This document shows, in pieces, positions 1,436 through 28,930 of a DNA stretch of 32,000 bases (within the stretch, counting starts at the first letter, position 1; each line of letters starts with the position of its first letter). The position numbers and the translations under genes were made by a program. This DNA comes from Pseudomonadota bacterium (lineage in GTDB: Bacteria; Desulfobacterota; Desulfobacteria; Desulfobacterales; JAFDDL01), in NCBI GenBank assembly GCA_043797445.1, contig JAZDPP010000092.1, positions 1-32,000 on the forward strand. Reading direction: 5' to 3'. The notes under the pieces were generated by a model, which ran no database searches, was not told the origin of the DNA, and saw nothing but the letters and a program-made list of their open reading frames with translations.

Positions 1436-1456
1436 TGTTTCCTCCATAAGATGTGT

Positions 1457-3080: not shown

Positions 3081-3196
3081 CCTCTGCCCTCGGTGTTACA
3101 CATCATCCTCTTTTTGTGTAACAGCTCGATATATTGTCGAAGTGGAAGCAGCGTGCGCTTAAATAAAGAAAATAATTTGTTCTGCAATGCCGGTAT

Positions 3197-3712
3197 ATGA
3201 ACGATGACAACCGCGGCGTCACAGCGGGTAATTACCTCTTGAAGCCCGGATATATTTATATTGCGGACCCTCGGACGGTTTTGTCCACTGTGTTGGGCTC
3301 TTCCGTGTCGGTTTGCCTTTTTGACCGAAAGAGGAAAGTCGCCGGCATGAACCACTTCCGGCTTCCTTTCACCAAAGACCCGAAAAAGGCAACCGCCGAT
3401 TACGGTAATGTCGCGACGCTTACCCTCATACGAATGATGGTAATTGACGGATCTGACACAAAGCACCTTGAGGCGCAGGTGTTCGGCGGAGCCTATAATT
3501 CGGAGATTTCTTCAAAGGATATCGGCGGGGAGAATGCCGCGGCTGCAAAAAAAATGTTGCTGCGGGAGAAAATACGGATTGTCTCCGAAGATATCGGCGG
3601 GGAAAAGGGACGCAAAATTGTTTTTGACCCGGCAAAAAATGAGACAGCGGTCATTAAGGTGGATAAACTGCGCAAAGGCGATTGGTTTCCCTACGAGGAT
3701 GATCGGGTGTAA
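3197..3712 (+). CDS. cheD: Chemoreceptor glutamine deamidase CheD
   Basis: 171 aa. ...VLSTVLGSSVSVCLFDRKRKVAGMNHFRLP...LEAQVFGGA... follows the CheD signature (LGSC.av.l.D......GmnH..LP ... K.FGGA). The catalytic Cys position is present (SVC). Confidence 0.85.
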   Translation: MNDDNRGVTAGNYLLKPGYIYIADPRTVLSTVLGSSVSVCLFDRKRKVAGMNHFRLPFTKDPKKATADYGNVATLTLIRMMVIDGSDTKHLEAQVFGGAYNSEISSKDIGGENAAAAKKMLLREKIRIVSEDIGGEKGRKIVFDPAKNETAVIKVDKLRKGDWFPYEDDRV

Positions 3713-3874: not shown

Positions 3875-5371
3875 TCATGGATCCAGATCCGGAAGCATTG
3901 CCCCGTGGGCCAGAAGGTTGCGGTGCAGCTCAAAGCAACGCGTGAGATCATGCGCGATATGGCCGACGCGGGATTCACTCACGTACCGGTGCAGGTAATC
4001 CCGATAGGCCGGATGGGCGCAGTGGTCAATGATTCTTCGCGCGCGTTGCACGGGACCGAGACCTCGCAAGTCGGAAAGCCCCTGTTCCGTCACCACCACC
4101 TGAACGGAATGCTCGTTGTTGTCGATATGCGGGCACATGGGGACGATGGAACTGATTCTCCCGCCTTTGGCAATGGAGGGGGTGATAAAAATGGATAAAT
4201 AGCTGTTTCGGGTGAATTCACCGCTGCCGCCAACTCCGTTCATGACATCCATGCCGTAAAGGTGTGAAGAATTGACGTTGCCGTAGATATCGATTTCCAG
4301 GGCCGTATTGATGGCAATGACGCCCAACCGGCGAATCACGCCGGGATGGTTTGAAATCTCCTGGGGTCTCAAAACGATCCGGGGTGCAAAAAAATCGATA
4401 TTATCGACGATTCGAGCGAGTTTGTCCGTGGTGACAGTGAGGCTCGTGGCACTGGCGCCCAGCAGACGTCCCCTGGCCATCAGATCCACCTGCGAATCCT
4501 GAAAGACTTCCGAATACATCATGAAGGGAGGAAGTTCAGCGGTGTTGCCGAGTGCCTCCATGACGCCGTTGGCCATATTGCCGACTCCCGCCTGCAATGG
4601 CAGAAAGGTTTTGGGAATGCGCCCGCAAGCCATCTCTTTCAGTAAAAAATCCGCCACATGATGACCGATCGCCTGACTGACGGCATCCGGTGTTGCAAAG
4701 GCGTCGACCTTATCCGATGCGTCATTTTCGACCACTCCGATGACTTTTTTCGGATCCACCACTGCATAGGGGAGCCCGATGCGCGTCAACGGGTCATAAA
4801 TGGGAATCGGATTGCGATGCGGCGGGGGCGGCATCACCCAGATATCCGCCATCTCGCGCAAGCGCGGGGCCTGGCGCCGATTCAATTCGATAACCACCTT
4901 TTTCGCGTACTTCAAGTAGGTCGGGGAGGCGCCGATGGAGGTGCTCAGGTAAACCCGCCCGTCCGGCGTGATCTCCGTGGCTTCTATTGCCGCCAGATCG
5001 ATTTCTCCCAGAAACCCCCAGGAAACCATCTGGGGAAGGTGCGAAAGATGCATATCCACATATTCCACCTTCTGCTGGTTGATTTGTTCCCGCAGCACCT
5101 TTCCGCCCTGGTAAGGGGCTCGCCAGGAGATGGCCTCTGCCGCCGCGAGATCTTCATCCACGCTTTGTCCGCTGGAGGCGCCGGTGAGGACCCTGATTTG
5201 GAAAGGCCTTCCGAGTGCATGCTGTTCCCGGGCATAAGCCGCCAGCGCTTCCGGAACCGCTTTTGCGGCCCCTGCGGGAGAAAACCCCGAAAAAGAAACC
5301 GTTTGCCCGTGCTGAATGCCCGCTGCAACTTCCTGTGCGCTCAATACCGGAAAGGGACCGTATCCTGCCAT
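3875..5371 (-). CDS. Acetyl-CoA hydrolase/transferase family CoA-transferase (succinyl-CoA:acetate CoA-transferase-like)
   Basis: The N-terminus ..VLSAQEVAAGIQHGQTVSFSGFSPAGAAKAVPEALA and the conserved MNGVGGSGEFTRNSY motif are typical of the family. The start was chosen at 5371 (MAGYG..) because GGGGGAG lies 8 nt upstream. The ORF is open to 5419. Confidence 0.85.
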   Translation of the reverse strand: MAGYGPFPVLSAQEVAAGIQHGQTVSFSGFSPAGAAKAVPEALAAYAREQHALGRPFQIRVLTGASSGQSVDEDLAAAEAISWRAPYQGGKVLREQINQQKVEYVDMHLSHLPQMVSWGFLGEIDLAAIEATEITPDGRVYLSTSIGASPTYLKYAKKVVIELNRRQAPRLREMADIWVMPPPPHRNPIPIYDPLTRIGLPYAVVDPKKVIGVVENDASDKVDAFATPDAVSQAIGHHVADFLLKEMACGRIPKTFLPLQAGVGNMANGVMEALGNTAELPPFMMYSEVFQDSQVDLMARGRLLGASATSLTVTTDKLARIVDNIDFFAPRIVLRPQEISNHPGVIRRLGVIAINTALEIDIYGNVNSSHLYGMDVMNGVGGSGEFTRNSYLSIFITPSIAKGGRISSIVPMCPHIDNNEHSVQVVVTEQGLSDLRGLGPVQRARRIIDHCAHPAYRDYLHRYVSESRVGHIAHDLTRCFELHRNLLAHGAMLPDLDP

Positions 5372-5436
5372 GCTCGAAGCTCCCCCAAGTGAGTGGTTCA
5401 TAGTTGTTAAAAATAGCATTATTCTGAAATTTGTCC

Positions 5437-7431: not shown

Positions 7432-7765
7432 TTTTGATCGACCGTTTTTTATAAGGGGAGGTTATACCTTCCATACGATTAAATGAATTGACTCTTATGC
7501 GATTATTTTCTAATTAACAAGCCGAAACATTTCATAAACCATCCTGTATATCGATGGTGCCGGCAGAGGCGGTTTTTGGGCGGGCATCATGAAACATGTT
7601 GCAGTTTCTCCTTTGTGCTTTAAAAGTGACCGACTGAAAGAAACTTTCACGTCAATTTCCGGCATGAGGCCTGCTTCTTAGGGCCATGTCGCCGGAATGG
7701 GGGGCATGGCTTCAGAGAGAGACACGAGTTAGCGATTAGCTTTTATAAAAAAGGAGGGTTGGACG

Positions 7766-8407
7766 ATGGCGATTCTTTATACCCAGGCATTTGATATCAT
7801 TTCCGGGCAGGAGGCCGCGTACGAAAATTTTATCGCTGATTACATTCCCCGTTCGAACAAGCTGGGGCTTCAATCCGTTGGTGGATTCTACGTGGTTTGC
7901 GGTTTTGGGCCCCGGATTATCCATATATGCCGCGCCGAATCGATTGATGATTTATGCCGGATTTTGTCGACTAAGGAATTCAGGGACCTGCTTCTTGATA
8001 TCAAACGGTACGTCGTTAACTTCCGGAGCAAAATTCTTGAGCCGACCGGGCGGGTCAAACACCAGGAATACGAACTGAGAAAGGGGATCTGGAAGTTCAA
8101 CCAGTACTACGATCTGATCCCGGGCAAGAAAAAGGATTATGCCGATTTTATCATCAACGAGTACCTTCCGGTGATCGAGAAAATTGATTACGTGGAGGTG
8201 ACGGGCGGCTGGAACGTCCTTATCGGCGGTGTCAGCGAGATCATTGGGGAGTTTACTTTCAAATCGCCCGTGGATATCGCACGCATCCTTGAAAATCCGG
8301 ATTTCCAGCGCATTACCGACGTGCTTCGCACGTATGTGGTCAACTATGTGAGCCGCATTATGAGGGTCACCGAACGGTTCGAGGAATCCAGGTGGTACAG
8401 GCTTTGA
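7766..8407 (+). CDS. Hypothetical protein made of two tandem ~100-aa homologous modules
   Basis: A strong RBS AAGGAGGG lies upstream. There is a clear internal repeat: aa 2-96 against aa 108-204, for example RILSTKEFRDLLLDIKRYVVNFRSKIL against RILENPDFQRITDVLRTYVVNYVSRIM. No family was recognised. Confidence 0.7.
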   Translation: MAILYTQAFDIISGQEAAYENFIADYIPRSNKLGLQSVGGFYVVCGFGPRIIHICRAESIDDLCRILSTKEFRDLLLDIKRYVVNFRSKILEPTGRVKHQEYELRKGIWKFNQYYDLIPGKKKDYADFIINEYLPVIEKIDYVEVTGGWNVLIGGVSEIIGEFTFKSPVDIARILENPDFQRITDVLRTYVVNYVSRIMRVTERFEESRWYRL

Positions 8408-8470
8408 ATTCCGGTCCTCGCCGTATCACGGCCATTCACACCCCAACCCCTTAGACAAGGAGGAAAAGAC

Positions 8471-10315
8471 ATGGCAAAAAAGTTTTTAGACCCGCACGAT
8501 GTTCCCAAGATCCCCGGCACCGAGGGGTGGGAGAGAATGTACCCCTACTATTACCAGTTTAACACGGACGACCCGGCCCGGGCGGCGCATGAAAGCAACC
8601 AGCTATGGTATTATGACGGTCTTCATTACCCCGAGCCGCACCCGCCTTTTGACCTGATGTGGGACGAGGCCTGGTTCATGGCGCTGTCCCAGAACAATAC
8701 CCGAACCTTTCTCGTTCCCCCGGCCAAAGGCATCGAACACCGGATTGTAAACGGATATGTTTATATAACGCCCATCGGCATTGCCGATCCAAAGGAGATC
8801 GAGTCGCGGGTACCCGTTTTTTTAAAACGGGCCGGCTACTACTATGATAACTGGGATACCCTCTATCAGGAGTGGGAAGCCCGGATGAAAACACTCTTAA
8901 TCGAGCTTGAATCCGTCTCCTTTCACCCCCTTCCGGAGGTAGAGGATGAATCGGTCGTTTTTGAAAAGAGAGGGACCGGAAGCGGGTATCATCTGCTGAA
9001 CAAATATGACGATCTGATCGATATGGGGTTTAAGTGCTGGCAATATCATTTTGAGATGCTCAATCTCTGCTATGCCGCCTTTCTGACCTTTACCAATACG
9101 GTGGACCAGATTTTCCCGAACACCCCCGTAGCAACCGTGACAAAGATGGTTTCCGGGATCGATGCCATGATCATGAGGCCCAATGCCGAACTGATCAAAC
9201 TGGCGAAGCTGGCGATTGAAAAGAAGGTCGAAGACCTCATTCTGGAACCCCTGGACGCTTCGGCGCTCATGGAAGCGCTCGGCAAGACGCCCGCCGGCGT
9301 GGAGTGGCTTACCGCACTGGAGGCGTCACGCTATCCCTGGTTTCATATTTCAACCGGCACGGGGTGGTATCATCACCATTGCAGCTGGAACGACGATCTC
9401 AATATCCCCATGGAAAACATTCGGATGCACATCAAGGCGTTAAAAGCGGGGAAAGTGATCGATCGGCCCACCGAAAGATTGATCGAGGAGCGGGATAAAA
9501 TCGTTAAGGAATACCGGGCCATGATTCAGACGGATGAAGACCGCGAGGCGTTCGACGAGACCCTTTCCATTGCCCGGCGGGTATTTCCCTTCGCGGAAAA
9601 CCATATCTTCTATGTCGAGAACTGGTTCCACAGTGTTTTTTGGAACAAAATAAGGCAGGTCGCCGATATTCTTCACGATATCGGTTTTATTAAAGACCGG
9701 GAAGATATCTGGTACCTGAGACGGGGGGAAATCCGGGACGCCCTGTGGGATCACGTGACCAGCTGGGCCACCGGAATTGAACCGCGAGGGCCGTTCCATT
9801 GGCCAAAGGAAATCGAATGGCGGAAAGGGGTTATCGAGAAATTCAGGCAGTGGACGCCGCCACCGGCTCTGGGAACTCCTCCCGACGTGGTCACCGAACC
9901 GTTTACGATCATGTTGTGGGGGGTCACGACGGATGTGTTAAAGAAATGGCTGGAGAGCACCGAAGCGGCCGCGGGAATGGATGACACCGATGAGTTGTTC
10001 GGAGCGCCCGGTTCCTCGGGTCTTGTGGAAGGAAAGGCGCGGGTTATCCGGACCGTTGCGGAGTTGAGCGATTTGCAGGAGGGGGAGATTTTAGTCGCCA
10101 CCACGACCTCACCCAGTTGGGCGCCCGCCTTTTCGAAAATCAAGGGTGCTGTCACGGATGTCGGCGGATCCATGTGCCATGCGGCGATCATCTGCCGTGA
10201 ATATGCCTTGCCGACGGTTGTGGGAACCGGGAGAGCCACTTCATTTATCAAAACGGGTGATTTGATTCGTCTGGATGGGGATCAGGGTACCATCAAGATT
10301 CTGAAACGGGCCTGA
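8471..10315 (+). CDS. PEP-utilizing-enzyme family protein, phenylphosphate synthase alpha (PpsA)-like (substrate domain + phosphohistidine swivel domain)
   Basis: 614 aa, with RBS AGGAGG. The C-terminus GSSGLVEGKARVIRT...GEILVATTTSPSWAPAFSKIKGAVTDVGGSMCHAAIICREYALPTVVGT is the mobile His domain. The protein ends right after it, so there is no ATP-grasp domain and no PEP/pyruvate TIM-barrel domain. Confidence 0.85.
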   Translation: MAKKFLDPHDVPKIPGTEGWERMYPYYYQFNTDDPARAAHESNQLWYYDGLHYPEPHPPFDLMWDEAWFMALSQNNTRTFLVPPAKGIEHRIVNGYVYITPIGIADPKEIESRVPVFLKRAGYYYDNWDTLYQEWEARMKTLLIELESVSFHPLPEVEDESVVFEKRGTGSGYHLLNKYDDLIDMGFKCWQYHFEMLNLCYAAFLTFTNTVDQIFPNTPVATVTKMVSGIDAMIMRPNAELIKLAKLAIEKKVEDLILEPLDASALMEALGKTPAGVEWLTALEASRYPWFHISTGTGWYHHHCSWNDDLNIPMENIRMHIKALKAGKVIDRPTERLIEERDKIVKEYRAMIQTDEDREAFDETLSIARRVFPFAENHIFYVENWFHSVFWNKIRQVADILHDIGFIKDREDIWYLRRGEIRDALWDHVTSWATGIEPRGPFHWPKEIEWRKGVIEKFRQWTPPPALGTPPDVVTEPFTIMLWGVTTDVLKKWLESTEAAAGMDDTDELFGAPGSSGLVEGKARVIRTVAELSDLQEGEILVATTTSPSWAPAFSKIKGAVTDVGGSMCHAAIICREYALPTVVGTGRATSFIKTGDLIRLDGDQGTIKILKRA

Positions 10316-10321
10316 TTGGTT

Positions 10322-10351
10322 TGTCGGGGCGGTTCGCGAACCGCCCCGACA
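10322..10351. terminator. Perfect 30-nt GC-rich palindrome between convergent genes (candidate bidirectional terminator / REP-like element)
   Basis: TGTCGGGGCGGTTCG|CGAACCGCCCCGACA was read directly. It sits between the PpsA-like stop (10315) and the LysR stop (10377). There is no clear U-tract. Confidence 0.5.
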
Positions 10352-10376
10352 GGTTGCATTGAGGGCTGAAGGATTC

Positions 10377-11333
10377 TCATCGGCCGAGGCGCGTGGAATT
10401 GTTATCGCCCAAAATCAGGGAATGAATTCCCTTGATGGGTCTTTTTCCCCCCGTTATCTGCTCCAGGGTTTTAAGAAAGGCCCGGGCGGCGGGGGACAGC
10501 GGTTGGTTTTTTAAATAGGCGATGCTGACATCGATCGTGACGGTCTCTCCGATGATCGGACGGGTGGCGAGTCTCTCCTGTTTGATTTCCGCGTCCACCG
10601 CTCCTCTGACCAGGAAGGAAATTCCCTCGCCCCGTTCGACGAATTGTTTGATAAAATCGGCGTTGGCCGTTTCCATCAGAATGTTGGGAGTGCAGCCATG
10701 GCGTGCGTAGAGTTCGTTGACCACCCGTCTCGTTTTTGAGCCGGTCTCTTTCAGGATGACCGGTTCATTGGAAATTTCTTCGAAAGTGACGCTTTTTTTG
10801 CGGACCAAAGGATGTCCGGGCGGAAGCAGCAGAATCAATTCCTCCTCGCTGAAAGGGATAAATTCCACATCCGGTGCATCGACTACCTTGGCGATAATTG
10901 CCACCTCGTTTTTCAGCTCCGGAAGGCTTTTGATCATATCCGTGGAGCTGCCCTCGTCCAGATGTATTTCGATATGGCGATACTTCGCGTGAAAATCCCG
11001 CATCAGAAACGGCATGATGTAACGGGCGTAGGTTTTGCTGGTGCCGAGGCGCAGGACGCCGCGCTTGAGGCCTCGTAGATCCGCGATGAGGGTCTCGACT
11101 TCCTTTTCGTGCTCAAAGATCGGCCGGACACTTTCGTAGAGCGCTTTTCCCTCGTCGGTCATGCAGATGCTTCGGCCACGCTTTTTAAATAACTCAAGTT
11201 CACAGTATTCCTCGAAAGCCTTTATTTGCGCCGTGACGGCCGGCTGGGTGATAAAGAGCTCTTTTGCGGCGGCAGTAAAGCTCAGGTTCTTTGCCACATA
11301 ATAGAATGCTCTGATCTGATTTAAATTGAGCAT
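10377..11333 (-). CDS. LysR-family transcriptional regulator
   Basis: MLNLNQIRAFYYVAKNLSFTAAAKELFITQPAVTAQIKAFEE is the LysR-type wHTH, followed by a typical substrate-binding domain. The start at 11333 has GGAGAAG upstream. The 380-aa track ORF (to 11519) is an over-extension. Confidence 0.9.
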   Translation of the reverse strand: MLNLNQIRAFYYVAKNLSFTAAAKELFITQPAVTAQIKAFEEYCELELFKKRGRSICMTDEGKALYESVRPIFEHEKEVETLIADLRGLKRGVLRLGTSKTYARYIMPFLMRDFHAKYRHIEIHLDEGSSTDMIKSLPELKNEVAIIAKVVDAPDVEFIPFSEEELILLLPPGHPLVRKKSVTFEEISNEPVILKETGSKTRRVVNELYARHGCTPNILMETANADFIKQFVERGEGISFLVRGAVDAEIKQERLATRPIIGETVTIDVSIAYLKNQPLSPAARAFLKTLEQITGGKRPIKGIHSLILGDNNSTRLGR

Positions 11334-11664
11334 GTGACGCTTCTCCATCGGGCTTGGGGCATTGGGCTGCCTTCCTTTTGGAAGTAAAGAGGAAACGGTT
11401 GGAACGACCGGTGTGCCGGACGTGCTCAACCCATAAGTTCTCCTGATAAATAGCATAAGGATAATGAAATTGACATCATATTTTATTTCAGTCATCCTGC
11501 AACTTAAAAACGTGGCCATATGAAGGCCGCTTCCGTTGCCATATCACGTTTTACCCAACTGCTCGTGTTTTTAAAATAAAATCATACCCCCTCATTCAAG
11601 GGGCACCGATTAACGGGGCGAATTTTTCGCTTCACTTATAAACCCTGTAAAGGAGGAAAACACC
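11334..11664. promoter_or_regulatory. Divergent intergenic control region between the LysR gene and the UbiD-led operon
   Basis: A 331-bp AT-rich spacer lies between divergently transcribed genes, the usual site of LysR autoregulation and activation. No specific operator or promoter was confidently identified. Confidence 0.4.
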
Positions 11665-13071
11665 ATGAAGGACATGAGAGATTATCTGTCAATTTGTGAA
11701 GAAAAAGGGTTATTAAAAAGAATTACGGCGGAAGTTGACCCGTACCTGGAATTGTCCCATATCGCAAAATTAAACGAGGAAGCCCAGGGGCCGGCCCTCT
11801 TGTTCGAAAATGTGAAGGGCCATAATACACCTGTTCTTACCAGTGCCAGTACAACGGTTCAACGTCTGGCCATTATCATGGGTGAGCCTGAAAATTCAAG
11901 CCTTTTTGATCTCTATGCAGCATGGGCGGAAAAGGCAAAAAGTCCGATCAAACCAAAATATGTGGATAGAAGTCAGGCGCCCTGCAAGCAAAACATCATG
12001 ATGGGGGATGATATAGATCTGACTATGTTTCCGGTTCCCCATTATTATCCTCTGGATGGCGGCAAATATTATGGGACCGCACACTTCATCATTACCAAAG
12101 ATCCTGATTCCGGATGGGTTAATCTGGGAACCTATCGAAGCCAGCTGCTGGGTAAAGACAAACTCGGCACCCAGTTCATCAAAGGCAAACATGCCGATAT
12201 CATGCTCAAAAAATACCAGGCACTGAAACAACCCATGCCCGTTGCCTCCATTTGCGGATGCGACCCCATCTTATTTTTAGTGGGAGCCGCCAGGATTGGC
12301 GCCTTTACCAGTGAATTGGAGGTGGCCGGCGCTTTCCGGGGTGAACCCATAGAAGTGGTCAAAGGAGAAGTGGTGGATCTGCCCATTCCCGCCCATGCGG
12401 AAATCGTGGTGGAAGGATTTGTGGATGCGGATAAGTTTATGGAAGAAGGCCCCTTTGGTGAATATACCGGGTATTACTCCGGTGTGGGGACGGATCCCAG
12501 AAACTTTATCGATGTGAAATGTATCACCTATAGAAACAATCCGATATTCTGGGGAACAACCGTTGGTCGTGCGGTAACCGATTCGCATATGACCCTGGCG
12601 TTGTCCTATGGCGCCACCCTCTGGCAGCAACTTAATGAAATGAGGATACCGGGTTTGAAAAATTGTTATTGCCCCCCCGAAGCTGCCGGCAGATTCCTTG
12701 CGATTATCTCCGTAAAACAGATGTTCCCGGGGCATGTCGACCAGGTGCTCACCGCGGCTATTTCAACGGAAATGGGCGCCTATGGGCTTAAAACCGTCAT
12801 TGTGGTGGATGACGATATTGATTCATGGGACATCCCAAGGGTCATGTATGCCATGAGTTTCAGATTCCAGCCAAACCGTTGCCAGATCATCAAGAGAGGC
12901 CGGTCTACCCCGCTTGATCCTTCTCTGCCCATCGATGCCAGATGGATTACCGGAAGACTTCTCATGGATTGTACGATTCCCTATGAGTGGGAAGAAAAAC
13001 CCATTCAGATCAAACTGGATGATGCCATGGTTAAACATGTGAAAGAGAGATGGGCGGAGCTTGGGCTCTAA
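11665..13071 (+). CDS. UbiD-family (prFMN-dependent) aromatic (de)carboxylase
   Basis: 468 aa, with RBS AAGGAGGA. MRDYLSICEEKGLLKRITAEVDPYLELSHIA..., GTYRSQLLGKD, PAHAEIVVEGFV and EEGPFGEYTGYYSG are hallmark UbiD segments. Confidence 0.9.
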   Translation: MKDMRDYLSICEEKGLLKRITAEVDPYLELSHIAKLNEEAQGPALLFENVKGHNTPVLTSASTTVQRLAIIMGEPENSSLFDLYAAWAEKAKSPIKPKYVDRSQAPCKQNIMMGDDIDLTMFPVPHYYPLDGGKYYGTAHFIITKDPDSGWVNLGTYRSQLLGKDKLGTQFIKGKHADIMLKKYQALKQPMPVASICGCDPILFLVGAARIGAFTSELEVAGAFRGEPIEVVKGEVVDLPIPAHAEIVVEGFVDADKFMEEGPFGEYTGYYSGVGTDPRNFIDVKCITYRNNPIFWGTTVGRAVTDSHMTLALSYGATLWQQLNEMRIPGLKNCYCPPEAAGRFLAIISVKQMFPGHVDQVLTAAISTEMGAYGLKTVIVVDDDIDSWDIPRVMYAMSFRFQPNRCQIIKRGRSTPLDPSLPIDARWITGRLLMDCTIPYEWEEKPIQIKLDDAMVKHVKERWAELGL

Positions 13072-13242
13072 AAAGGCTTGATCCGTCATTCCATTACGGT
13101 CTTGCGGGCGAGAATTGTTCCGACATTCCTCCCGCAAGGCTTATGGAAGTCTTCATGCATGCAAAACACTTGCTGCCTAAAGGGAATTTGAAAACCTAAA
13201 ACCATCACACGAGTGTGGGTTGCATCAACCGGAGGGGCAAAA

Positions 13243-14307
13243 ATGGTAGAAAAAGAAAAACGAATGACGATTTGGTACGATGAACTCAAAGGTGAGGAGT
13301 ACCATCTTGTCGGTAAGAAAAATGCCAACCTGGGAGAGATGATAAAGGCGGGGATTCGCGTGAGCCCCGGGTTTGCCCTGACCGTTCATGCCAACGAGGT
13401 GTTTGTTTCCGAGACGGGCATTAAACAGAAACTCGAAGACTATCTTAACGACCTAGGTCCGGTGAGTTACGAGAAGAGTCAGCAGGCGAGCCAATACGCC
13501 ATCGATCTGATTGAAAACGCCGAGATACCGCCGGTGATCTGCGATGAAGTTTTTCGGGAATACGAGAAGCTTTGCAGTCTGTCCGGTGTCGAAAACGTGC
13601 CGGTTGCGGTCCGATCCAGCGGAGCCGTTTCCATGCCCGGTCAGATGGAGACTTACCTGAATATTCGCGGGAAAAACGATTTACTTCTCTATATCAAAAA
13701 GACCTGGTCCAGCGCCTATTCCGTCGAAGCCATTACCTATCGGATGAACAAGGGAATGGGGTTTATGCTCAATATCGGCGTGGGGATTCCCAAGATGGTC
13801 AATTCCCGGCTTTCAGGCGTTATTTTTACCTTAAACCCCCTAAACGGGGACCGGTCCAAGATATCTGTTGATGTGAGTTACGGTCTGGGCGAGGCCGTTG
13901 TGAGCGGTATGGTGACACCTGACAATTACCTGGTGGAAAAGGTAACGCTGCAGGTGATCAGCTCGGTGATGGGGGGGAAGGAATCCATGTGTGTCTACCA
14001 GGACGGCGAGAGCAATATCAAGATCGTGGATGTGGCCCAAGAGGACCGCGTGAGATATTGCATTACGCCGGCGGAGCTGACGGAACTTTGCCGTATCGCC
14101 AAGTCCATCGATGTTTACTATGGAAAACCCTATGATATTGAATTCGCGATCGATTGGGATCTGCCGTTCCCCGAGAATGTGATTATTCTCCAGGTCAGGC
14201 CCGAATCGGTCTGGTCCAAGAAGGAGACCCAGCCAAGGACCGCCAAAAAGAAAGATGTTATGGACAGGATTATCAGTCAATTGGTTACGGGCGTCAGAGT
14301 GAAGTAG
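13243..14307 (+). CDS. PEP/pyruvate-binding (PPDK_N ATP-grasp) protein, phenylphosphate synthase beta (PpsB)-like
   Basis: LVGKKNANLGEMIKAGIRVSPGFALT ... VAVRSSGAVSMPGQMETYLN ... PYDIEFAI is the nucleotide-binding domain of PEP synthase/PPDK. No His swivel domain is present. The start at 13243 has GGAGGGG upstream, and a GTG at 13213 is an alternative. Confidence 0.85.
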   Translation: MVEKEKRMTIWYDELKGEEYHLVGKKNANLGEMIKAGIRVSPGFALTVHANEVFVSETGIKQKLEDYLNDLGPVSYEKSQQASQYAIDLIENAEIPPVICDEVFREYEKLCSLSGVENVPVAVRSSGAVSMPGQMETYLNIRGKNDLLLYIKKTWSSAYSVEAITYRMNKGMGFMLNIGVGIPKMVNSRLSGVIFTLNPLNGDRSKISVDVSYGLGEAVVSGMVTPDNYLVEKVTLQVISSVMGGKESMCVYQDGESNIKIVDVAQEDRVRYCITPAELTELCRIAKSIDVYYGKPYDIEFAIDWDLPFPENVIILQVRPESVWSKKETQPRTAKKKDVMDRIISQLVTGVRVK

Positions 14308-14326
14308 TAACTATAAGGAGGAACCA

Positions 14327-15979
14327 TTGAAACCGATTCGCTATAAAGAAAAAATGATAAACGAGTTTGTAGAAGACGGCCACTGGACGCAGGAGCTGTT
14401 TTACGATTTCTGGGACCGAAACGCCCGGGAGTTTGGAGACCGGGAAGCCCTTGTCGATTCAAAGCACCGGATCACCTGGGCCGAAGCGAAAAAGCTGGTG
14501 GATGCCATGGCCATTACGTGGGTGGAAATGGGAATCGCCAAGGATTCGCGCATCATCATTCAATCGCCTAACAGCGTGTTCGGATTTCTCGCCCGGATTG
14601 CCTGCGAGCGCGCCGGTTGCATTTCCCTGACCGTCTATCCGTATTTGCGTCAGTTGGAACTGGAGTATATGCTGGAGAAGACCGAAGCCACAGCCGTGGT
14701 GATTCCCAGTGTTTATCGGGGATTTGACTATCTGGACATGTACCGGGGCCTGCAGGAGCGGTTTACCCATCTAAAATACTTCTTCCTCTTTGACGATCAG
14801 GTGCCGGCCGGCGCGCCGAAGGGCGCCTACTCGCTGACAACGACGGTTCAGGAGCGCGCGAAAAAGCCGGTGGATGCGTCGGTTCTGGACGCCCGACGGC
14901 TTAGCGCCTGGGGTGATGTGGCGCTATTGACGACCACCTCCGGCACGACCGGTATTCCCAAGCTCGTTGAATATCCCGCGGCTCCCCGAGTCTGTACCTC
15001 CAAGGGCAGAGTCGATATCTGGAAACTCACCAAGGACGATATTGCCGTGGCCATCGCGCCCCATGCCGGCGGTGCCGCGGGGACGTTGACCTATTTTGCA
15101 GCACCTCTTGCGGGCGCCAAAACCGTCATGCTGGAGGAATTCGAACCGGAAGCGGCTCTCGCTCTGATGGAAAAGGAAAAGGCCACGGCCATCGGCGTGG
15201 TGCCCACCCACCTGATTCGAATGCTCGAGTGCGATATCTCCAAATATGATTTGAGTTCTCTTCGCTTTATTCGCTCCGCCGGTGGATATCTTCCTCCGCA
15301 AGTTGCGGAAGAGGCGGAAAATGCGTTCGGGGCCTCCATCACGAGTGATCTGGGTACCCAGGATATGGGATCCGTGTCCGGATGCCGGGTGGAAGACAGC
15401 AAGGATTTACGTCGCCGGACCGTCGGGCGCATGCTGCCGGGCAATAAGGTTCGTCTTCTGGATAAAGACACTAAAAAAGAGGTACCCGAAGGAGAGCCCG
15501 GTGTGCTCTACTTCAGAGGACCCCATGCCCCGGCCGGCTATTTCCGGGATGAGAAATTGACCGCGACGGTATTCGACGATGAGGGGTGGACCACGACGAG
15601 TGATATCGTGAAATTCGATCAGGGGTGTCTCTGGATTCTGGGTCGTGCGAAAGACATGATCATTCGGGGCGGACAGAACCTCTATCCGGCGGAAATTGAG
15701 GGATTATTGAACGGCCATCCCAAAATTGCCTCCGTGGCCGTCGTGGGGTATCCGGATCGCCTGATGGGGGAAAGAGCTTGCGCCTATGTCATTCCCAAAA
15801 AGGGTCAGACGTTTATCTTTCAGGAGATGGTCGATTTTCTTAAATCCAAGAAACTGGCCATGTTCAAAATTCCCGAGCGTCTGGAGATCGTCTCGGAGTT
15901 TCCGGCTGTCGGGGATTCCGGAAAGGTCAACAAGGAAGTATTGAAGAAAGATATCGCTGAAAAAGTAAAGGCGGGGTGA
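14327..15979 (+). CDS. AMP-forming aryl/acyl-CoA ligase (adenylate-forming superfamily)
   Basis: A TTG start follows AAGGAGG. The adenylation core motifs are present: TTTSGTTGIPK, WTTTSDIV, GRAKDMIIRGGQNLYPAEIE and a C-terminal GKVNK. The N-terminus (..DGHWTQE..) resembles the EntE/AliA-type aryl/alicyclic acid ligases, from memory. Confidence 0.9.
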   Translation: MKPIRYKEKMINEFVEDGHWTQELFYDFWDRNAREFGDREALVDSKHRITWAEAKKLVDAMAITWVEMGIAKDSRIIIQSPNSVFGFLARIACERAGCISLTVYPYLRQLELEYMLEKTEATAVVIPSVYRGFDYLDMYRGLQERFTHLKYFFLFDDQVPAGAPKGAYSLTTTVQERAKKPVDASVLDARRLSAWGDVALLTTTSGTTGIPKLVEYPAAPRVCTSKGRVDIWKLTKDDIAVAIAPHAGGAAGTLTYFAAPLAGAKTVMLEEFEPEAALALMEKEKATAIGVVPTHLIRMLECDISKYDLSSLRFIRSAGGYLPPQVAEEAENAFGASITSDLGTQDMGSVSGCRVEDSKDLRRRTVGRMLPGNKVRLLDKDTKKEVPEGEPGVLYFRGPHAPAGYFRDEKLTATVFDDEGWTTTSDIVKFDQGCLWILGRAKDMIIRGGQNLYPAEIEGLLNGHPKIASVAVVGYPDRLMGERACAYVIPKKGQTFIFQEMVDFLKSKKLAMFKIPERLEIVSEFPAVGDSGKVNKEVLKKDIAEKVKAG

Positions 15980-15983
15980 TCGA

Positions 15984-17195
15984 ATGCCGAAAACCGTACT
16001 GATTCTCTCGACGCTGGACACAAAGAGTGAAGAAACTCTCTATTTGCGGCAAAAAATAGAGTCAATCGGTCTCGGAAACTTAGTGATGGATCTCTCCATG
16101 CGTGGCGACAGCGCCTGGCCGGCGGATATTACACCGGCACAGGTTGCCGTTGCCGGCGGCAGTTCACTGGAAGAGATTCGAAGCTCCCGGGATCGATCTA
16201 AAAATACCCGTATTACCACCGCCGGCGCTTCGAAAATCGCCGGTGAGCTATTCAGACAGGGTCGAATCGCCGGTGTGCTCGCCATCGGCGGCTCGACCGG
16301 CTCTCTCATGGCAACCGACGTCATGCGCACACTCCCCTTCGGGGTGCCCAAGCTCATGATCTCCTCCACCGCCGCCTTGCCGGGACTTGCCACCCGGTAT
16401 ATCGGAACCGGAGACATCCTGCTCTTTCACTCCGTCATTGAAGTGGCCGGGGTCACGGATCTATTGAAAAACGTGGTGGACAGAGCGGTCCACGCCATGG
16501 CCGGTATGCTTTCGGAGGGAATTACCCCGCCGTTCAGCCGCGCTGGAAAGGCCATAGCCATTACCATGCTCAGCCCCTGCGAACAATGCGCCAGTGCAGT
16601 TCGGGACGCCCTGGAAAAGGACGGGTATCAGGTGATCGGCTATTCGGCGGCGGGTGTCGGTGACCGGGCCATGGAGGAGATGATATCCCAGGGCCTCTTC
16701 CACGGGGTCATCGATCTTGCGCCCGGCGGGGTGGGGGAGCATCTGTTTGGCTATATGCGGGATGCGGGTCCCGACCGGATGGAGTCCGCGGGCCGCAAGG
16801 GCATTGCGCAGGTGATCTCCACCTGCAGCGTAAACCACATGACGCCGTCCAAGAACAAGTATAAGCCGGATTTTTACGAGCGCAGAAAATACGACCTTGA
16901 CAAGTTCCGCTCCTGGGTGCGCTTATCGCCCGAAGAGTTAAAGACCGTGGCAGGGGTGTTTGCGCAGAAGCTGAACGGCGCCAGAGGACCCGTAAAGGTA
17001 TTGATTCCCTCCAGGGGGTGGTCATCGGTGGATATTCCCGGAAACCCAACCTATGATCCCGACGAGGACCGCATCTTTGTGAAGGAGCTTCGGTTATTGC
17101 TTGACTCAAAAATAGAATTGGTTGAGATTGAGGCGAACATGGAAGAGCCCGTGTTTGCCGAGGCGGTGGTTCGGGTTGCAAGGGAAATTTTTTGA
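15984..17195 (+). CDS. UPF0261 / Tm-1-like ATP-binding domain protein
   Basis: 403 aa. The N-terminus MPKTVLILSTLDTKSEETLYLRQKIES.G is the characteristic UPF0261 start (..I.I.GT.DTKG.E..YL). It starts 4 nt after the ligase stop, which suggests translational coupling. Confidence 0.75.
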   Translation: MPKTVLILSTLDTKSEETLYLRQKIESIGLGNLVMDLSMRGDSAWPADITPAQVAVAGGSSLEEIRSSRDRSKNTRITTAGASKIAGELFRQGRIAGVLAIGGSTGSLMATDVMRTLPFGVPKLMISSTAALPGLATRYIGTGDILLFHSVIEVAGVTDLLKNVVDRAVHAMAGMLSEGITPPFSRAGKAIAITMLSPCEQCASAVRDALEKDGYQVIGYSAAGVGDRAMEEMISQGLFHGVIDLAPGGVGEHLFGYMRDAGPDRMESAGRKGIAQVISTCSVNHMTPSKNKYKPDFYERRKYDLDKFRSWVRLSPEELKTVAGVFAQKLNGARGPVKVLIPSRGWSSVDIPGNPTYDPDEDRIFVKELRLLLDSKIELVEIEANMEEPVFAEAVVRVAREIF

Positions 17196-17322
17196 CATCC
17201 TGGCATTGATCATTTTTTCTAAAAACCGGAACACGGCGTTGCAGGGGCGAAAATAAGTCTCCATTACGGGTTGCAGCCGGTGCGGGATGTTTTCCATTTA
17301 TTACTATAATGAAAGGTGAATT

Positions 17323-17904
17323 ATGCCCAAACGAATCGTCGTCGGACTCTCAGGGGCCAGCGGGATTATCTATGGCGTCCGCATTCTGGAGCTTCTCAGG
17401 GATTCAGATATCGAAACGCATTTGATTATCTCAAACTCCGGGAAGGTAAATATCCGTATCGAGACTGATTTTACGCCGGAAGAAGTTGCCGCCATGGCAA
17501 ATTATACCTACGATGACAATGACATGGCGGCGGCTGTCTCCAGCGGTTCATTTTTAACCGAGGGAATGATCGTCGCCCCCTGCACCATCAAATCGCTTTC
17601 CGGAATTGCCAATTCCTATACCACCAACCTGCTGGTGAGGGCCGCGGATGTAACGCTTAAGGAAAAACGGAAGCTGGTTCTGGTTGTCAGGGAAACGCCG
17701 CTCCACAAGGGGCATTTGAGGCTGATGACCATGGCGGCGGACATGGGGGCACATATTCTGCCCCCGGTCCCCTCCTTTTATCACAAGCCGAAAACCATTC
17801 AGGACATCATCGATCAGACCATCGGAAAGGTCTTCGATTATATGGGAATCCAGCATGCGTTATTTGCACGATGGGGCAAAGAAGAACGCGACGAGGTTTT
17901 ATGA
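17323..17904 (+). CDS. ubiX: Flavin prenyltransferase UbiX (prFMN synthase)
   Basis: 193 aa. MPKRIVVGLSGASGIIYGVRILELL, MIVAPCTIKSLSGIANSYTTNLLVRAADVTLKE.RKLVLVVRETPL and HL.NM are textbook UbiX/Pad1 segments. Confidence 0.95.
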   Translation: MPKRIVVGLSGASGIIYGVRILELLRDSDIETHLIISNSGKVNIRIETDFTPEEVAAMANYTYDDNDMAAAVSSGSFLTEGMIVAPCTIKSLSGIANSYTTNLLVRAADVTLKEKRKLVLVVRETPLHKGHLRLMTMAADMGAHILPPVPSFYHKPKTIQDIIDQTIGKVFDYMGIQHALFARWGKEERDEVL

Positions 17905-18039: not shown

Positions 18040-19101
18040 TCATCTTTTCATATTCTTCTTTACTGTCTTAATGAAGCGTCCGAATGCCCTGTCCTTTTTA
18101 CGTTTGTCCAAGTACGACATCTCATAGTGCTCTGACTCTTTCCTGAGTTTCAAATAACTATTATAGCGCTCCTCACTCAACTCGCCGTTTGTAATAGCAG
18201 TAAGAACTGCGCAGTCTGATTCTTGAGTATGGCTGCAATCGACATAGCGACAAGCCATGGAAAGCTCGATAATATCTTCAAACCCTTTGCTTACCCCTTC
18301 CCTGGCGCCCAGAAGGCCTAATTCTCTCATTCCAGGTGTATCAATGAACATAACGCCGTTATCAAGAACAATGAGTTGCCGACGCGCTGTTGTGTGTGTG
18401 CCTTCTCCTGTTCCACTAACCGCTTTGGTATCAAGATCATCCTGTCCAATCAGATGATTGATCAGTGTCGTCTTGCCGACTCCGGATGACCCAAGCAGGC
18501 AATATGTTTGACCCGGTATTAATACCGGATGAAATTCGTCAAATCCGGAGCCAGTTATGTTACTGAGCGCAATAACCCTGGTCGTGATGCCAGCCTGTCT
18601 AATAATCGCAAGCTTCTGTTGCAGCTCATCGTGGGAGATCAAGTCCGTTTTGGCAAGAATGATAATCGGCTCAACATGTCCGTCAGCCGCCATTACTAAA
18701 TACCGATTCAGTCTAGGTAGATTAAAGTCGAAGTGACATGACTGGACAATGAAAGCGATATCAATGTTGGCTGCAATCATCTGGTAGTCCACTTCTATGC
18801 CAGCACGCTTGCGGCGTAAAAACGTCTTTCGTGGAAAGACCCCATGGATGAGTGCCGAAGCGCCATCATTGTGATACTGCACGGTGACCCAATCGCCGAC
18901 GCATGGCAGCTCGACCGATGACTCGACATGGAAATAGAATTTTCCCGCAAGTTCAGCAGGAATCTCTCTGAGTTCATTCCTGATAATGTAGGAATTGCGA
19001 TCAACTGCCGACACGCGTGCAATGCCTTGATTCTCGTGGCGGATGTCATCGACATGTGCGTCAAACCAGTGGTCAAACCCTATATCACTCAATTTCATCA
19101 T
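18040..19101 (-). CDS. rsgA: Ribosome small-subunit-dependent GTPase A
   Basis: It has a circularly permuted GTPase order: LAKTDL (G4), GSSGVGKTTL (G1), DTPGMRE (G3). A C-terminal zinc knuckle CRYVDCSHTQESDCAV and an N-terminal OB-like region are present. The start was chosen at MMKLSDIG; the track ORF extends to 19179. Confidence 0.85.
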   Translation of the reverse strand: MMKLSDIGFDHWFDAHVDDIRHENQGIARVSAVDRNSYIIRNELREIPAELAGKFYFHVESSVELPCVGDWVTVQYHNDGASALIHGVFPRKTFLRRKRAGIEVDYQMIAANIDIAFIVQSCHFDFNLPRLNRYLVMAADGHVEPIIILAKTDLISHDELQQKLAIIRQAGITTRVIALSNITGSGFDEFHPVLIPGQTYCLLGSSGVGKTTLINHLIGQDDLDTKAVSGTGEGTHTTARRQLIVLDNGVMFIDTPGMRELGLLGAREGVSKGFEDIIELSMACRYVDCSHTQESDCAVLTAITNGELSEERYNSYLKLRKESEHYEMSYLDKRKKDRAFGRFIKTVKKNMKR

Positions 19102-19381
19102 AAGAGGTAAGCGCATCGATCTCGGATTGATATTCTCTATTTTGTGAACGAAGAGCATAAGACCATATTGGCGTATCAACCAGGACTTTCAACGATTTCT
19201 TCCCCTTTTATAATCATAATAATTGATCATCGATCGCTAAATTGGTGGCCATTTTGCACTTCCTTTTTTACACACCATATTGCACATTGAATTGTGTGTC
19301 AAATAAGTGCGGCGAGGCTAACGTTGGAATTCTGCGGCTGTCGTAGGCGGTCCGCTTGAACGCCGGGTAGCCGCGGCTCTT

Positions 19382-19693
19382 TTAAATGTCGAGTGCAAAG
19401 CGAATTGCCCGTGCAACGTCAAACTTCTTTGTCCGGGGCAAGGATGTGATCAACGGTCCGATTTTGCTCTTGGAAACAGTCTGCAAATGGTCACAATTGA
19501 CAGCACAGTCCTGAGGCATACCATCAGCCGTCGAGAGGAACACCTCGGACGGTATATTACGTACGGTAGTCGTAATGGGTGCGATGGTAACCTCCCCCAG
19601 ATATTCCAACACGGAATCCCGTGTCAGGATAAGGACAGGCCGTTGTTTATCTGGCAACAAAAATTTATACCAGCGTATTTCGCCATGCTTCAT
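19382..19693 (-). CDS. mazF: Type II toxin, MazF/PemK family endoribonuclease
   Basis: 103 aa. GEIRWYKF..PDKQRPVLILTRDS...VTIAPITTT fits the PemK/MazF pattern. Its ATG overlaps the upstream antitoxin stop (ATGA). Confidence 0.85.
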   Translation of the reverse strand: MKHGEIRWYKFLLPDKQRPVLILTRDSVLEYLGEVTIAPITTTVRNIPSEVFLSTADGMPQDCAVNCDHLQTVSKSKIGPLITSLPRTKKFDVARAIRFALDI

Positions 19694-20523: not shown

Positions 20524-20880
20524 CTACTGCGCGTCGAAAACAATTTTTAAAGCTTCGTCAATTTTTGCCATGATCTCGTCTTCCAGTTCACCTCGCACTT
20601 TGACTAAACGAGCGCGGTGATCAATAGGACGAGTCTGCAGGCAATCCGCCACCATTTTTTTGGTTAACCCGTTATGCGACGATGGGACAATTTCCGCATT
20701 AGTGATGATGCTGGCTTTTTTTTCACTCCATGTCGTTAACGGTACCACTTGGATGACTGGAACACGCGCATTATACGTGTTGTTCGTAACTATCACGCAG
20801 GGTCGAATTTTCCCGGTTTCCGAACCCTTGGCAGGGTCAAGATTCACGTCGATGACCATCCCCCGGCTCAGCTTGCTCAT
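20524..20880 (-). CDS. mazF: Type II toxin, MazF/PemK family endoribonuclease (second copy, different subfamily)
   Basis: MSKLSRGMVIDVNLDPAKGSETGKIRPCVIVTNN...VVPLTT is the canonical MazF N-terminus (RG.i..v.ldP..G.E..K.RP.vVvs). The start at 20880 overlaps the upstream gene's stop (ATGA). The track ORF is over-extended to 20913. Confidence 0.8.
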   Translation of the reverse strand: MSKLSRGMVIDVNLDPAKGSETGKIRPCVIVTNNTYNARVPVIQVVPLTTWSEKKASIITNAEIVPSSHNGLTKKMVADCLQTRPIDHRARLVKVRGELEDEIMAKIDEALKIVFDAQ

Positions 20881-21110
20881 GTTGGCCACTCTGACAGCGC
20901 CGCATCCGTCCATTCTCTCGTTTCATCATCTTCTTCATAAACATCGGCGTACAAAGCAGCCGATTCGCGCAAGCGCTGCTGGGTTAATTCTGTAAACAAG
21001 CGATCGATGGCGGTACGCACCACGTCACTTTTATCCTTAAATCCATACCGATTGCATTGTTCAATAAATTGAATATGCGATTCTTTGAGGCTAAATTTGG
21101 CTTGAATCAT
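20877..21110 (-). CDS. Putative antitoxin partnered with the second MazF
   Basis: 77 aa with an acidic C-terminus (YEEDDETREWTD) and a 4-nt overlap with the toxin. The N-terminal FSLKESHIQFIEQCNRYGFKDKSDVVRTAIDRL is compatible with an RHH-like fold. The assignment rests mainly on context. Confidence 0.6.
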   Translation of the reverse strand: MIQAKFSLKESHIQFIEQCNRYGFKDKSDVVRTAIDRLFTELTQQRLRESAALYADVYEEDDETREWTDAALSEWPT

Positions 21111-28723: not shown

Positions 28724-28779
28724 ATGTTTCCCTTTGTCTGCGGAATTCTTCGCAGGGGCAATCTCCGGTAATCCATGGT

Positions 28780-28895: not shown

Positions 28896-28930
28896 GGTGT
28901 TTCTCGATACCCCTTGTGTCGCTGGATTGC

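Follow-up and report, generated by a model that had tools for sequence, protein, structure and literature searches.

Gene organization of the cluster

The DNA examined here is a 32-kb stretch of contig JAZDPP010000092.1 (positions 1 to 32,000, hereafter the window), in which open reading frame (ORF) listing and profile searches, used for the gene calls, revealed a cluster of eight genes between positions 7766 and 17904. Their products resemble the components of anaerobic phenol activation, namely the two halves of a phenylphosphate synthase-type kinase (PpsA and PpsB), a UbiD-family carboxylase, the flavin prenyltransferase UbiX and an aryl-acid ligase, together with a UPF0261 protein, a tandem-repeat protein of 213 amino acids (aa), here called dup213, and a LysR-type regulator. 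A previous interpretation made from the nucleotide sequence alone (the sequence-only reading) had regarded this cluster as a distinct variant of a phosphorylation, carboxylation and thioesterification pathway with an unassigned substrate. All of the genes listed in that reading were recovered by both approaches at the same positions, which confirmed its gene content and coordinates. The features of the cluster are as follows.

7766-8407, plus strand: dup213, 213-aa tandem-repeat protein, with a sub-threshold NIPSNAP match as its only Pfam match
8471-10315, plus strand: PpsA-like protein, 614 aa, presumed to bind the substrate and carry the phosphohistidine in a split dikinase, with carrier His570 and a C-terminal PEP-utilizers mobile (swivel) domain as its sole domain
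10377-11348, minus strand: LysR-type regulator with HTH_1 and LysR_substrate domains
11349-11664, no strand: divergent intergenic region between the LysR and UbiD genes, presumed to hold promoter and operator
11665-13071, plus strand: PpcB-type UbiD protein, 468 aa, with three UbiD domains
13243-14307, plus strand: PpsB-like ATP-grasp protein, 354 aa, with PPDK_N only
14327-15979, plus strand: AMP-forming aryl-acid ligase, 550 aa, with AMP-binding and AMP-binding_C domains
15984-17195, plus strand: UPF0261 protein, 403 aa, with both UPF0261 Pfam domains
17323-17904, plus strand: UbiX flavin prenyltransferase, 193 aa, matching NF004685

The eight genes are intact, full-length ORFs of lengths usual for their families, and no unassigned space for a further gene is left within the cluster. 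A scan of the window for promoters and terminators gave counts not above the shuffled expectation, and the transcription units were therefore deduced from gene order and spacing only. A scan for PpsA in one genome per species yielded 30 related loci, and exact-protein look-ups added 8 more (denoted below by L numbers). Loci with this gene set, more than 30 in number, occur in the Thermodesulfobacteriota, Syntrophorhabdaceae, Campylobacterota, Spirochaetia, Dehalococcoidia and Thermincola, so that the grouping of these genes is more than chance.

Correspondence to the phe cluster of Desulfatiglans anilini

The phe cluster of D. anilini (H567DRAFT_02049-02059; PMC6114531, PMC7500099), located on contig AULM01000011.1 (L031), consists of a divergent LysR gene on the minus strand followed by the genes for UbiD (468 aa), ligase (552 aa), UPF0261 (403 aa) and UbiX (193 aa), by hcrB/C/A-like genes and finally by those for PpsA (615 aa) and PpsB (358 aa). 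The same order of a divergent LysR gene and of UbiD, ligase, UPF0261 and UbiX genes was found in the window, where the proteins are 56% (LysR), 75% (UbiD; D. anilini Ppc-beta2, P0210), 78% (ligase; 02058), 67% (UPF0261; 02057) and 76% (UbiX; 02056) identical to their D. anilini counterparts and have lengths of 468, 550, 403 and 193 aa, respectively, for the last four. In D. anilini this cluster is induced by phenol, and cells grown on phenol yield extracts that form phenylphosphate (PMC6114531). The proposal of a distinct variant with an unassigned substrate was thus not borne out, as four of its proteins and its regulator are orthologous to, and syntenic with, a phenol-induced set.

Both clusters possess PpsA and PpsB and neither contains a gamma, delta or PpsC gene. 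The sequence-only reading had taken the single UbiD together with these gaps as the novelty of the cluster, yet the same situation has already been published: the D. anilini phe cluster has a ppcB homologue only, with ppsC, ppcA and ppcD located elsewhere and ppcC absent (PMC6114531), and according to the same paper Geobacter metallireducens likewise has a single ppcB and no gamma, delta or PpsC gene in its cluster. The second, alpha-type UbiD-like protein of D. anilini, 03563, is also encoded outside the phe cluster. Since these two organisms share the listed gaps, the supposed differences are published hallmarks of the phenol clusters of strict anaerobes.

Other features set the window apart from the phe cluster. 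Its PpsA is 40% identical to the D. anilini protein and belongs to another subclade, its PpsB gene lies between those for UbiD and ligase instead of beside PpsA, and it carries dup213, which was not found in the D. anilini DNA compared, a sequence that ends inside ppsB (02050 and 02049 being left out). Furthermore, the window lacks hcrABC-like reductase genes, no molybdenum-hydroxylase (hcr) gene being present among its annotated ORFs, and it also lacks the phenylacetate-coenzyme A (CoA)-ligase-type gene.

The small subunit of the Thauera aromatica phenylphosphate carboxylase is the gamma subunit. We know of no UPF0261 gene in the Thauera cluster. In the sequence-only reading the labels gamma and delta had been exchanged, the T. 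aromatica delta subunit being the 18-kDa phosphatase-like one (PMC6114531). With the PpsABC/PpcABCD system of T. aromatica the window shares the split dikinase, made of a 70-kDa histidine carrier and a 40-kDa ATP-grasp protein, as well as a beta-type UbiD and a UbiX-like gene. Unlike Thauera, it has no CBS-domain PpsC, no second (alpha) UbiD, no small gamma and no phosphatase-like delta subunit, and it contains in addition the UPF0261 protein, a DhbE-like ligase and the 213-aa protein.

The split kinase PpsA/PpsB

In Pfam searches the 614-aa protein showed a PEP-utilizers domain at residues 536-606 and no other recognised domain, and it scored 875 bits against NF006152 (cut-off 723). The segment GGSMCHAAIICREY at residues 565-578 contains His570, the counterpart of His569 in the Thauera protein and of His571 in D. 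anilini Pps-alpha (PMC7500099). A sequence search of the PDB with the N-terminal 500 aa returned no relative. The 354-aa protein, whose start was placed at the ATG at 13243 after a GGAGG ribosome-binding site, matched PPDK_N at 1.2e-86 and no further domain. The assignment of the two proteins to a split kinase of the PpsA/PpsB type thus stood.

Many proteins are 62-91% identical to PpsA, among them those of Syntrophorhabdus metagenome-assembled genomes (MAGs; 62-66%) and, at 67%, a Joint Genome Institute (JGI) entry named 'phenol phosphorylase subunit alpha'. In a neighbour-joining tree, built without Thauera and Geobacter sequences, the PpsA proteins fell into two main subclades, with D. anilini Pps-alpha lying outside both and bracketing the clade of the window. 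The subclade of the window's PpsA and PpsB is common to Syntrophorhabdus.

As noted in the sequence-only reading, the two halves of the kinase are unusually separated, with the LysR and UbiD genes placed between them. PpsB is nevertheless 69-77% identical to the PpsB proteins encoded 3' of PpsA in L001, L026, L002 and L003 and only 37-40% identical to those of the clusters with the closest UbiD and ligase. Over the loci the identities of the two proteins co-vary: where PpsA is at least 62% identical, PpsB is at least 56% identical, and PpsA values of 53-57% go with PpsB values of 37-40%. Although they lie apart in the window, the two halves are therefore a matched pair.

A solitary PpsA paralogue, 53% identical, was met in Aromatoleum buckelii (L023, 9983-11827). 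This locus was dropped as a canonical reference, no PpsB or Ppc genes being found within 10 kb; judged by ORF size alone, its upstream ORFs may encode a three-gene set of the molybdenum-hydroxylase type and a large regulator.

UbiD, UbiX and the ligase

The UbiD protein scored 475.7 bits with TIGR02724 (phenyl_P_beta), a narrow pass of the equivalog cut-off of 468.95, and stayed below the cut-off of TIGR02723 (alpha; 213.6 against 564.6 bits). It contains GTYR at residues 155-158 and EEGPFGE from residue 260 (E-G-P-F-G-E at 261-266), so that the Arg and the two Glu residues of the catalytic motif, which we take to be equivalent to Fdc1 R173, E277 and E282, are kept. Among structures its best UbiD match was at 2.5e-76, and the phthaloyl-CoA decarboxylase 8oz5 matched at 2.2e-16; a reading as phthaloyl-CoA decarboxylase was rejected. 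A tblastn search with the UbiD protein itself detected no second UbiD in the 32-kb window, which confirmed the single paralogue noted before. UbiX reached 262 bits with NF004685 (cut-off 188).

The best PDB relatives of the ligase are 2,3-dihydroxybenzoate-AMP ligases (DhbE, EntE) and salicylate-AMP ligases, with values of 1e-71 to 1e-66. As its nearest solved relatives are aryl-acid adenylating enzymes, the ligase fits a hydroxybenzoate substrate, and we presume it to be a 4-hydroxybenzoate-CoA ligase. Its D. anilini orthologue 02058 is induced by phenol, and its function was called unknown by the authors (PMC6114531); its proteome area was 1.26e10 on phenol as compared with ~8e8 on other substrates (PMC7500099 supplement). 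With a PpsA that has its histidine in place, a UbiD that passes the PpcB equivalog cut-off, UbiX and a ligase of the aryl-acid type, the logic of phosphorylation, carboxylation and thioesterification put forward earlier holds.

The UPF0261 protein

The 403-aa protein matched PF06792 (7e-50) and PF23189 (1.8e-62) and scored 349 bits with NF002674 (cut-off 335). Its gene begins 4 nucleotides (nt) past the stop codon of the ligase gene, and a distance of 3-10 nt is kept throughout the ligase-linked orthogroup; in at least 20 loci from several phyla PpsAB/UbiD are found together with UPF0261 genes. The D. anilini orthologue H567DRAFT_02057, listed as 'Uncharacterized protein, UPF0261 family' with 403 aa, had a proteome area of 2.5e9 on phenol as compared with 0 to 5e7 elsewhere, that is, a difference of ~50-fold, and the UPF0261 protein of the D. 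anilini aniline cluster (03869) was detected only in cells grown on aniline or 4-aminobenzoate (PMC7500099 supplement). No discussion of a role for UPF0261 proteins was found in the main text of PMC6114531 or PMC7500099.

In 2025 a UPF0261 protein of Novosphingobium aromaticivorans, MarK (Saro_1862, PDB 9MPY), was described as an ADP-forming kinase of phenolic hydroxyl groups, in which the gain of a lysine in the nucleotide site raised the activity ~1600-fold and whose phenol-binding residues G195, H219 and H304 are more than 90% conserved among homologues (PMC12624787). The UPF0261 protein of the window could be aligned with MarK end to end over both domains (E = 1.4e-53), and its D12-T13-K14 correspond to the ATP site D14-T15-K16 of MarK, including the critical lysine, which is kept across the orthogroup. 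At the phenol pocket, in contrast, G195 is replaced by S, H219 by S and H304 by L, and likewise H348 by V and F283 by H; the ligase-linked orthogroup as a whole, including D. anilini 02057, shows G or S, S or T, and L at G195, H219 and H304, respectively, whereas other cluster-associated UPF0261 paralogues keep the H219 of MarK. Because these pocket residues are replaced, among them conserved histidines, the protein was filed as a UPF0261 family member and its identification as a MarK-type phenol kinase was not adopted. The setting differs as well, MarK belonging to a biotin carboxylase cluster and the protein described here to an anaerobic UbiD carboxylase cluster.

In several phenol-type clusters two UPF0261 paralogues of different subtypes were present, as at 6952-8166 in L031, at 11564-12829 and 14571-15827 (minus strand) in L033, and at 18146-19393 and 20521-21783 in L026. 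In an alignment without L033, the extra copies of L031 and L026 keep the His219 of MarK and the ligase-linked copy of L031 has Ser.

UPF0261 had further been suggested to occur instead of the missing subunits. This was not supported, as the closest relatives carry UPF0261 beside a CBS (PpsC-like) gene and a small ORF and, in one assembly, a HAD gene; a protein encoded side by side with such genes is not a plain substitute for the CBS or HAD proteins.

The 213-aa tandem-repeat protein

The internal duplication of dup213 proved to be real: a local alignment of one half against the other scored 115, compared with 25.8 ± 4.5 in shuffles (z = 19.6). The protein is also novel as claimed, belonging to no characterised family. 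The weak NIPSNAP likeness was seen again in 2 of 10 representatives scanned against Pfam, and all of its homologues (331/331) are labelled hypothetical. An exhaustive profile search among 1.84 billion sequences found 209 cluster representatives at E <= 0.001, which past the top matches were mostly fragments or single-domain proteins of ~100 aa. The AlphaFold model (predicted local distance difference test, pLDDT, 88.9) consists of two beta-alpha-beta-beta-alpha-alpha-beta units, that is, two ferredoxin-like halves of the NIPSNAP/ABM-like kind, and the best Foldseek matches, with a template-modelling (TM) score of ~0.6, were the tandem ABM 'putative monooxygenases' 3f44 and 3mcs, the anthrone-oxidase-like 5f9p and HemQ/Cld.

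A protein of 213-215 aa is encoded directly upstream of PpsA in nine further related loci (L001, L003, L004, L005, L008, L025, L026, L033 and L037/L038, the last pair counted once) and is missing in four loci of the same PpsA subclade (L002, L006, L007 and L009). In the other PpsA subclade (53-57%), a CBS protein is encoded between UPF0261 and UbiX (L010, L014, L016, L019, L021, L022 and L034-L036). Among the loci examined, dup213 and a CBS PpsC-like gene never occurred together in one locus. Most likely, dup213 is an accessory of the PpsA/PpsB subclade of the window and fills the niche that PpsC occupies in the other subclade. In L013 a dup213-like gene, 36% identical, adjoins a very distant PpsB/PpsA pair (3-527, 595-1569 and 1771-3381, all on the minus strand; PpsA 26% identical, possibly aniline Pas-like), and the tandem-repeat protein may hence go with more than one kinase subclade.

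Mosaic structure and rearrangement

The closest UbiD proteins (76-86%), ligases (75-85%), UPF0261 proteins (65-69%) and UbiX proteins (66-75%) were found in clusters of the Syntrophobacteraceae/Desulfobacterales type (L014-L022, L034-L036), in which a divergent LysR gene heads the operon as in the window. These clusters differ in their PpsA (53-57%) and PpsB (37-40%), which belong to the other subclade, in the lack of the 213-aa protein and in the presence of a CBS PpsC-like gene between UPF0261 and UbiX, often along with HAD, small-ORF and LpdD-like genes. In L034-L036, whose UbiD proteins are 85-86% identical, a minus-strand LysR gene is followed by PpsA-PpsB-UbiD-ligase-UPF0261-(HD)-CBS-UbiX-small ORF-(HAD), the HAD gene being found in one assembly; the CBS gene was confirmed in four further clusters. 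Syntrophorhabdus Pps-Ppc operons (PMC5946492; L033), on the other hand, share with the window the PpsA/PpsB subclade, a 213-215-aa protein directly upstream of PpsA and adjacent UPF0261 and LysR genes, but have PpsB directly after PpsA, a small LpdD-like gene after a UPF0261 paralogue, and UPF0261 copies that are only 33-36% identical to that of the window.

As a kinase of one subclade with its dup213 is thus joined to phe-type UbiD, ligase, UPF0261 and UbiX genes, two conserved modules are combined in the window as a mosaic. The closest relatives at the nucleotide level change accordingly along the cluster.

7748-10313, dup213-PpsA: closest to L001 and L026
11649-13064, UbiD: closest to L034-L036 (~80%)
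13234-14307, PpsB: closest to L026, L002 and L001
14312-17190, ligase-UPF0261: closest to L019, L022, L015 and L031

Two independent ENA assemblies of one close relative (L037 and L038) were compared with regard to the unusual gene order. PpsA is 93% identical in both, and UbiD and PpsB are 95% and 91% identical in L038, which also has the order UbiD-PpsB-ligase; a remnant of the LysR 3' end (~100 nt) lies directly after PpsA in both. As these sister assemblies share the junctions, the odd gene order is not an assembly artefact, and a chimeric assembly was rejected as the source of the split kinase. Rearrangement of the cluster is still in progress in the L037/L038 lineage, where a dup213-PpsA block is located downstream of UbiX, and a second dup213 copy abuts the minus-strand LysR gene (L038, 1-313 and 10001-12756; L037, 8-583 and 5286-6293).

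When the genes of the relatives were used as tblastn queries, no CBS, HAD, LpdD-like or small-ORF gene was detected in the 32-kb window. The absence of a CBS-type PpsC, of a small or HAD-like subunit and of AbcD noted in the sequence-only reading was therefore confirmed within this stretch. Like the D. anilini cluster, the window represents a reduced version, whose missing functions plausibly reside elsewhere.

A Phenol_MetA_deg-family outer-membrane channel gene and a small LpdD-like (PF21758) gene lie inside the related cluster of L022 (18923-19957 and 19986-20483). Genes for an aldehyde:ferredoxin oxidoreductase (AOR) and a ferredoxin directly follow the cluster in L034/L035 (16563-19017), and an AOR gene of D. 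anilini, H567DRAFT_02046, has a locus tag close to the phe cluster.

The LysR regulator and the intergenic region

The 380-aa LysR ORF is over-extended, as the helix-turn-helix starts at residues 64-66; with the start codon read from the sequence, a protein of ~318-323 aa is obtained. Besides its likeness to the equivalently placed regulator of the D. anilini phe cluster, it is 86% identical to the LysR protein of L038. In the divergent intergenic region a ribosome-binding site (AGGAGG) precedes the UbiD ATG at 11665, and a 30-nt stretch at 11446-11475 (ATAAATAGCATAAGGATAATGAAATTGACA) shares 90% identity with its counterpart in L016 and is partly conserved in L026. This stretch may be the operator for the LysR protein.

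Proposed pathway and its weighing against other explanations

The correspondences described above point to a strict-anaerobe-type cluster for anaerobic phenol activation, assembled as a mosaic of two conserved modules, a reading to which we assign a probability of roughly 0.7. Its substrate is most likely phenol or a close phenolic; in support of phenol, the closest named relatives of PpsA come from the phenol-degrading genus Syntrophorhabdus. The steps of the pathway are inferred throughout from homology and orthology. PpsB (ATP-grasp) and PpsA (His570 swivel) would act as a split dikinase that converts phenol and ATP to phenylphosphate, AMP and Pi. The PpcB-type UbiD, supplied by UbiX with prenylated flavin mononucleotide and probably acting with a second UbiD-like partner encoded elsewhere, would carboxylate phenylphosphate in the para position to 4-hydroxybenzoate, which the DhbE-like ligase would convert to 4-hydroxybenzoyl-CoA. 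The divergent LysR protein would control the UbiD operon. The UPF0261 protein would most likely be an ATP-using phosphotransferase that acts on an aryl intermediate or supports the carboxylase, and the 213-aa protein an accessory of its PpsA/PpsB subclade. The downstream 4-hydroxybenzoyl-CoA reductase and gamma- and delta-like components were not found in the window.

Several observations weigh against this assignment. Since PpsA shares no more than 40% identity with D. anilini Pps-alpha, the reference used for the comparison, its membership of the family does not settle which substrate it takes. The window encodes a single UbiD, although two UbiD-like subunits were required in vitro (PMC7500099), and it lacks both the CBS, HAD, LpdD-like and small-ORF genes and the hcr genes that its relatives carry. 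Finally, the ligase gene carries a frameshift in L038 and is cut short in L037, with an ISL3 transposase nearby, and in a rearranging lineage with a broken ligase decay has to be considered.

That the same chemistry serves another substrate, such as cresol, catechol, hydroquinone or aniline, with the PpsA/PpsB/213-aa subclade phosphorylating another phenolic or an arylamine and UbiD and ligase processing the matching intermediate and acid, is the least improbable of the alternatives, and we consider it unlikely. Besides the distance of PpsA from D. anilini Pps-alpha, it could draw on the fact that its separate subclade has an accessory of its own, dup213, in place of the CBS protein, on several PpsA/PpsB pairs found side by side in L002, L013 and L015, which suggest substrate diversification, and on D. 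anilini itself, where Ppc-beta2, the orthologue of the UbiD described here, functions in the aniline pathway as well and phenol is a substrate of Pas-alpha/beta in addition to aniline (PMC7500099). The very same subclade, however, provides the PpsA of MAGs of Syntrophorhabdus, a genus of known phenol degraders (PMC5946492), and the UbiD, ligase, UPF0261 and UbiX of the window correspond to the proteins induced by phenol and not to those of the ani set. The D. anilini ani cluster (Pas-alpha/beta, Ppc-beta; PMC7500099) has the same five-part set of split kinase, UbiD, acyl-CoA ligase and UPF0261, but its short Pas-alpha with His512 is only ~27% identical to Pps-alpha-type proteins, and the only homologue of such distance met in this study is that of L013 (26%). 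As the PpsA of the window has 614 aa with His570 and its UbiD, ligase and UPF0261 match the phe and not the ani genes, an aniline-type system, one of the substrates considered in the sequence-only reading, is unlikely and this reading was rejected.

Alternatively, the cluster could be a decaying, non-functional mosaic, in which the kinase halves have parted, the PpsC-, gamma- and delta-like genes have been lost and the pathway no longer forms one unit. The mosaic structure at the nucleotide level, the lack of the CBS, small-ORF and HAD genes of the closest UbiD relatives, and the broken ligase genes, ISL3 transposase and duplicated dup213 of the sister assemblies would agree with this view. 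It appears improbable all the same: the eight genes of the window are intact and full-length, ribosome-binding sites are present, the PpsA/PpsB pair is co-adapted, and phenol supports growth of D. anilini even though CBS, gamma and delta genes are likewise missing from its cluster (PMC6114531). That the substrate of UbiD is instead an aryl-CoA or a hydrocarbon, the enzyme being a phthaloyl-CoA decarboxylase or a benzene carboxylase of the AbcA type and the kinase-like genes functionally unrelated neighbours, is highly improbable, for even though the order UbiD-ligase-UbiX is also known from putative benzene carboxylase clusters and a related PpsB-PpsA-UbiD-UPF0261 cluster is present in a Thermincola MAG of a benzene-degrading culture (L030), phthaloyl-CoA decarboxylase structures match only at 2e-16 against 2.5e-76, UbiD passes the PpcB cut-off and is 75% identical to Ppc-beta2, the window contains no AbcD- or LpdD-like small subunit, and most of the more than 30 loci encode PpsA and PpsB along with this UbiD. 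A preprint on the ORM2a 'Magic' benzene cluster was set aside as a comparison, as it concerns different genes.

Significance of the cluster and of its accessory proteins

Taken as a phenol activation cluster, the locus is not a new pathway variant but a rearranged and reduced copy of the known cluster of strict anaerobes, whose pathway type and 'missing' subunits have already been published, and with it a further uncultured Thermodesulfobacteriota-like organism joins the likely anaerobic phenol degraders. More useful than the window itself is the comparison over ~38 loci, which identifies UPF0261 and the DhbE-like ligase as regular, tightly linked members of the phenol clusters of strict anaerobes. 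It also draws attention to two overlooked conserved components, a UPF0261 protein, from a family whose only characterised member is a phenolic kinase, and a small tandem-repeat protein whose occurrence alternates with that of PpsC. Since dup213 and the CBS gene exclude one another among the loci, the former is a candidate for a new accessory subunit of the kinase.

Two points were left open in PMC6114531, namely which components take the place of the gamma and delta subunits and how anaerobes that live on little energy cover the cost of phenol carboxylation. As the first activity assigned to the UPF0261 family (2025) is the phosphorylation of phenolic hydroxyl groups, a testable lead on both points is now available. 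The UPF0261 protein could be an alternative, ADP-forming phenol kinase, or it could be a phenylphosphate:ADP phosphotransferase that replaces the delta phosphatase and recovers ATP; either activity, if true, would bear on the published puzzle of up to four ATP equivalents spent on this pathway by sulfate reducers and syntrophs. That UPF0261 and the 213-aa protein are jointly the missing functional parts of the phenol/aniline carboxylation machinery of strict anaerobes, with the former handling the aryl-phosphate and the latter constituting a new third subunit in place of PpsC, is a speculative proposal that we regard as unlikely, with a chance of about one in five.

Neighbouring genes

Genes for a ChrB-like regulator (467-1447, minus strand), CheD (3197-3712, plus strand), an acetyl-CoA hydrolase/transferase (3875-5419, minus strand) and an acyl-CoA dehydrogenase (21233-22438, minus strand) are also present in the window, none of them clearly linked to the cluster. 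Downstream of UbiX, RsgA is followed by a toxin-antitoxin patch with two MazF/PemK-type toxin genes and a PIN-domain gene (19382-19693, 20524-20913 and 23020-23403, all on the minus strand). The distal part of the window (24033-31872, minus strand) is occupied by a resistance-nodulation-division (RND) efflux operon that encodes an AcrB-type pump of 1099 aa, an HlyD_D23 adaptor and two outer-membrane factors.

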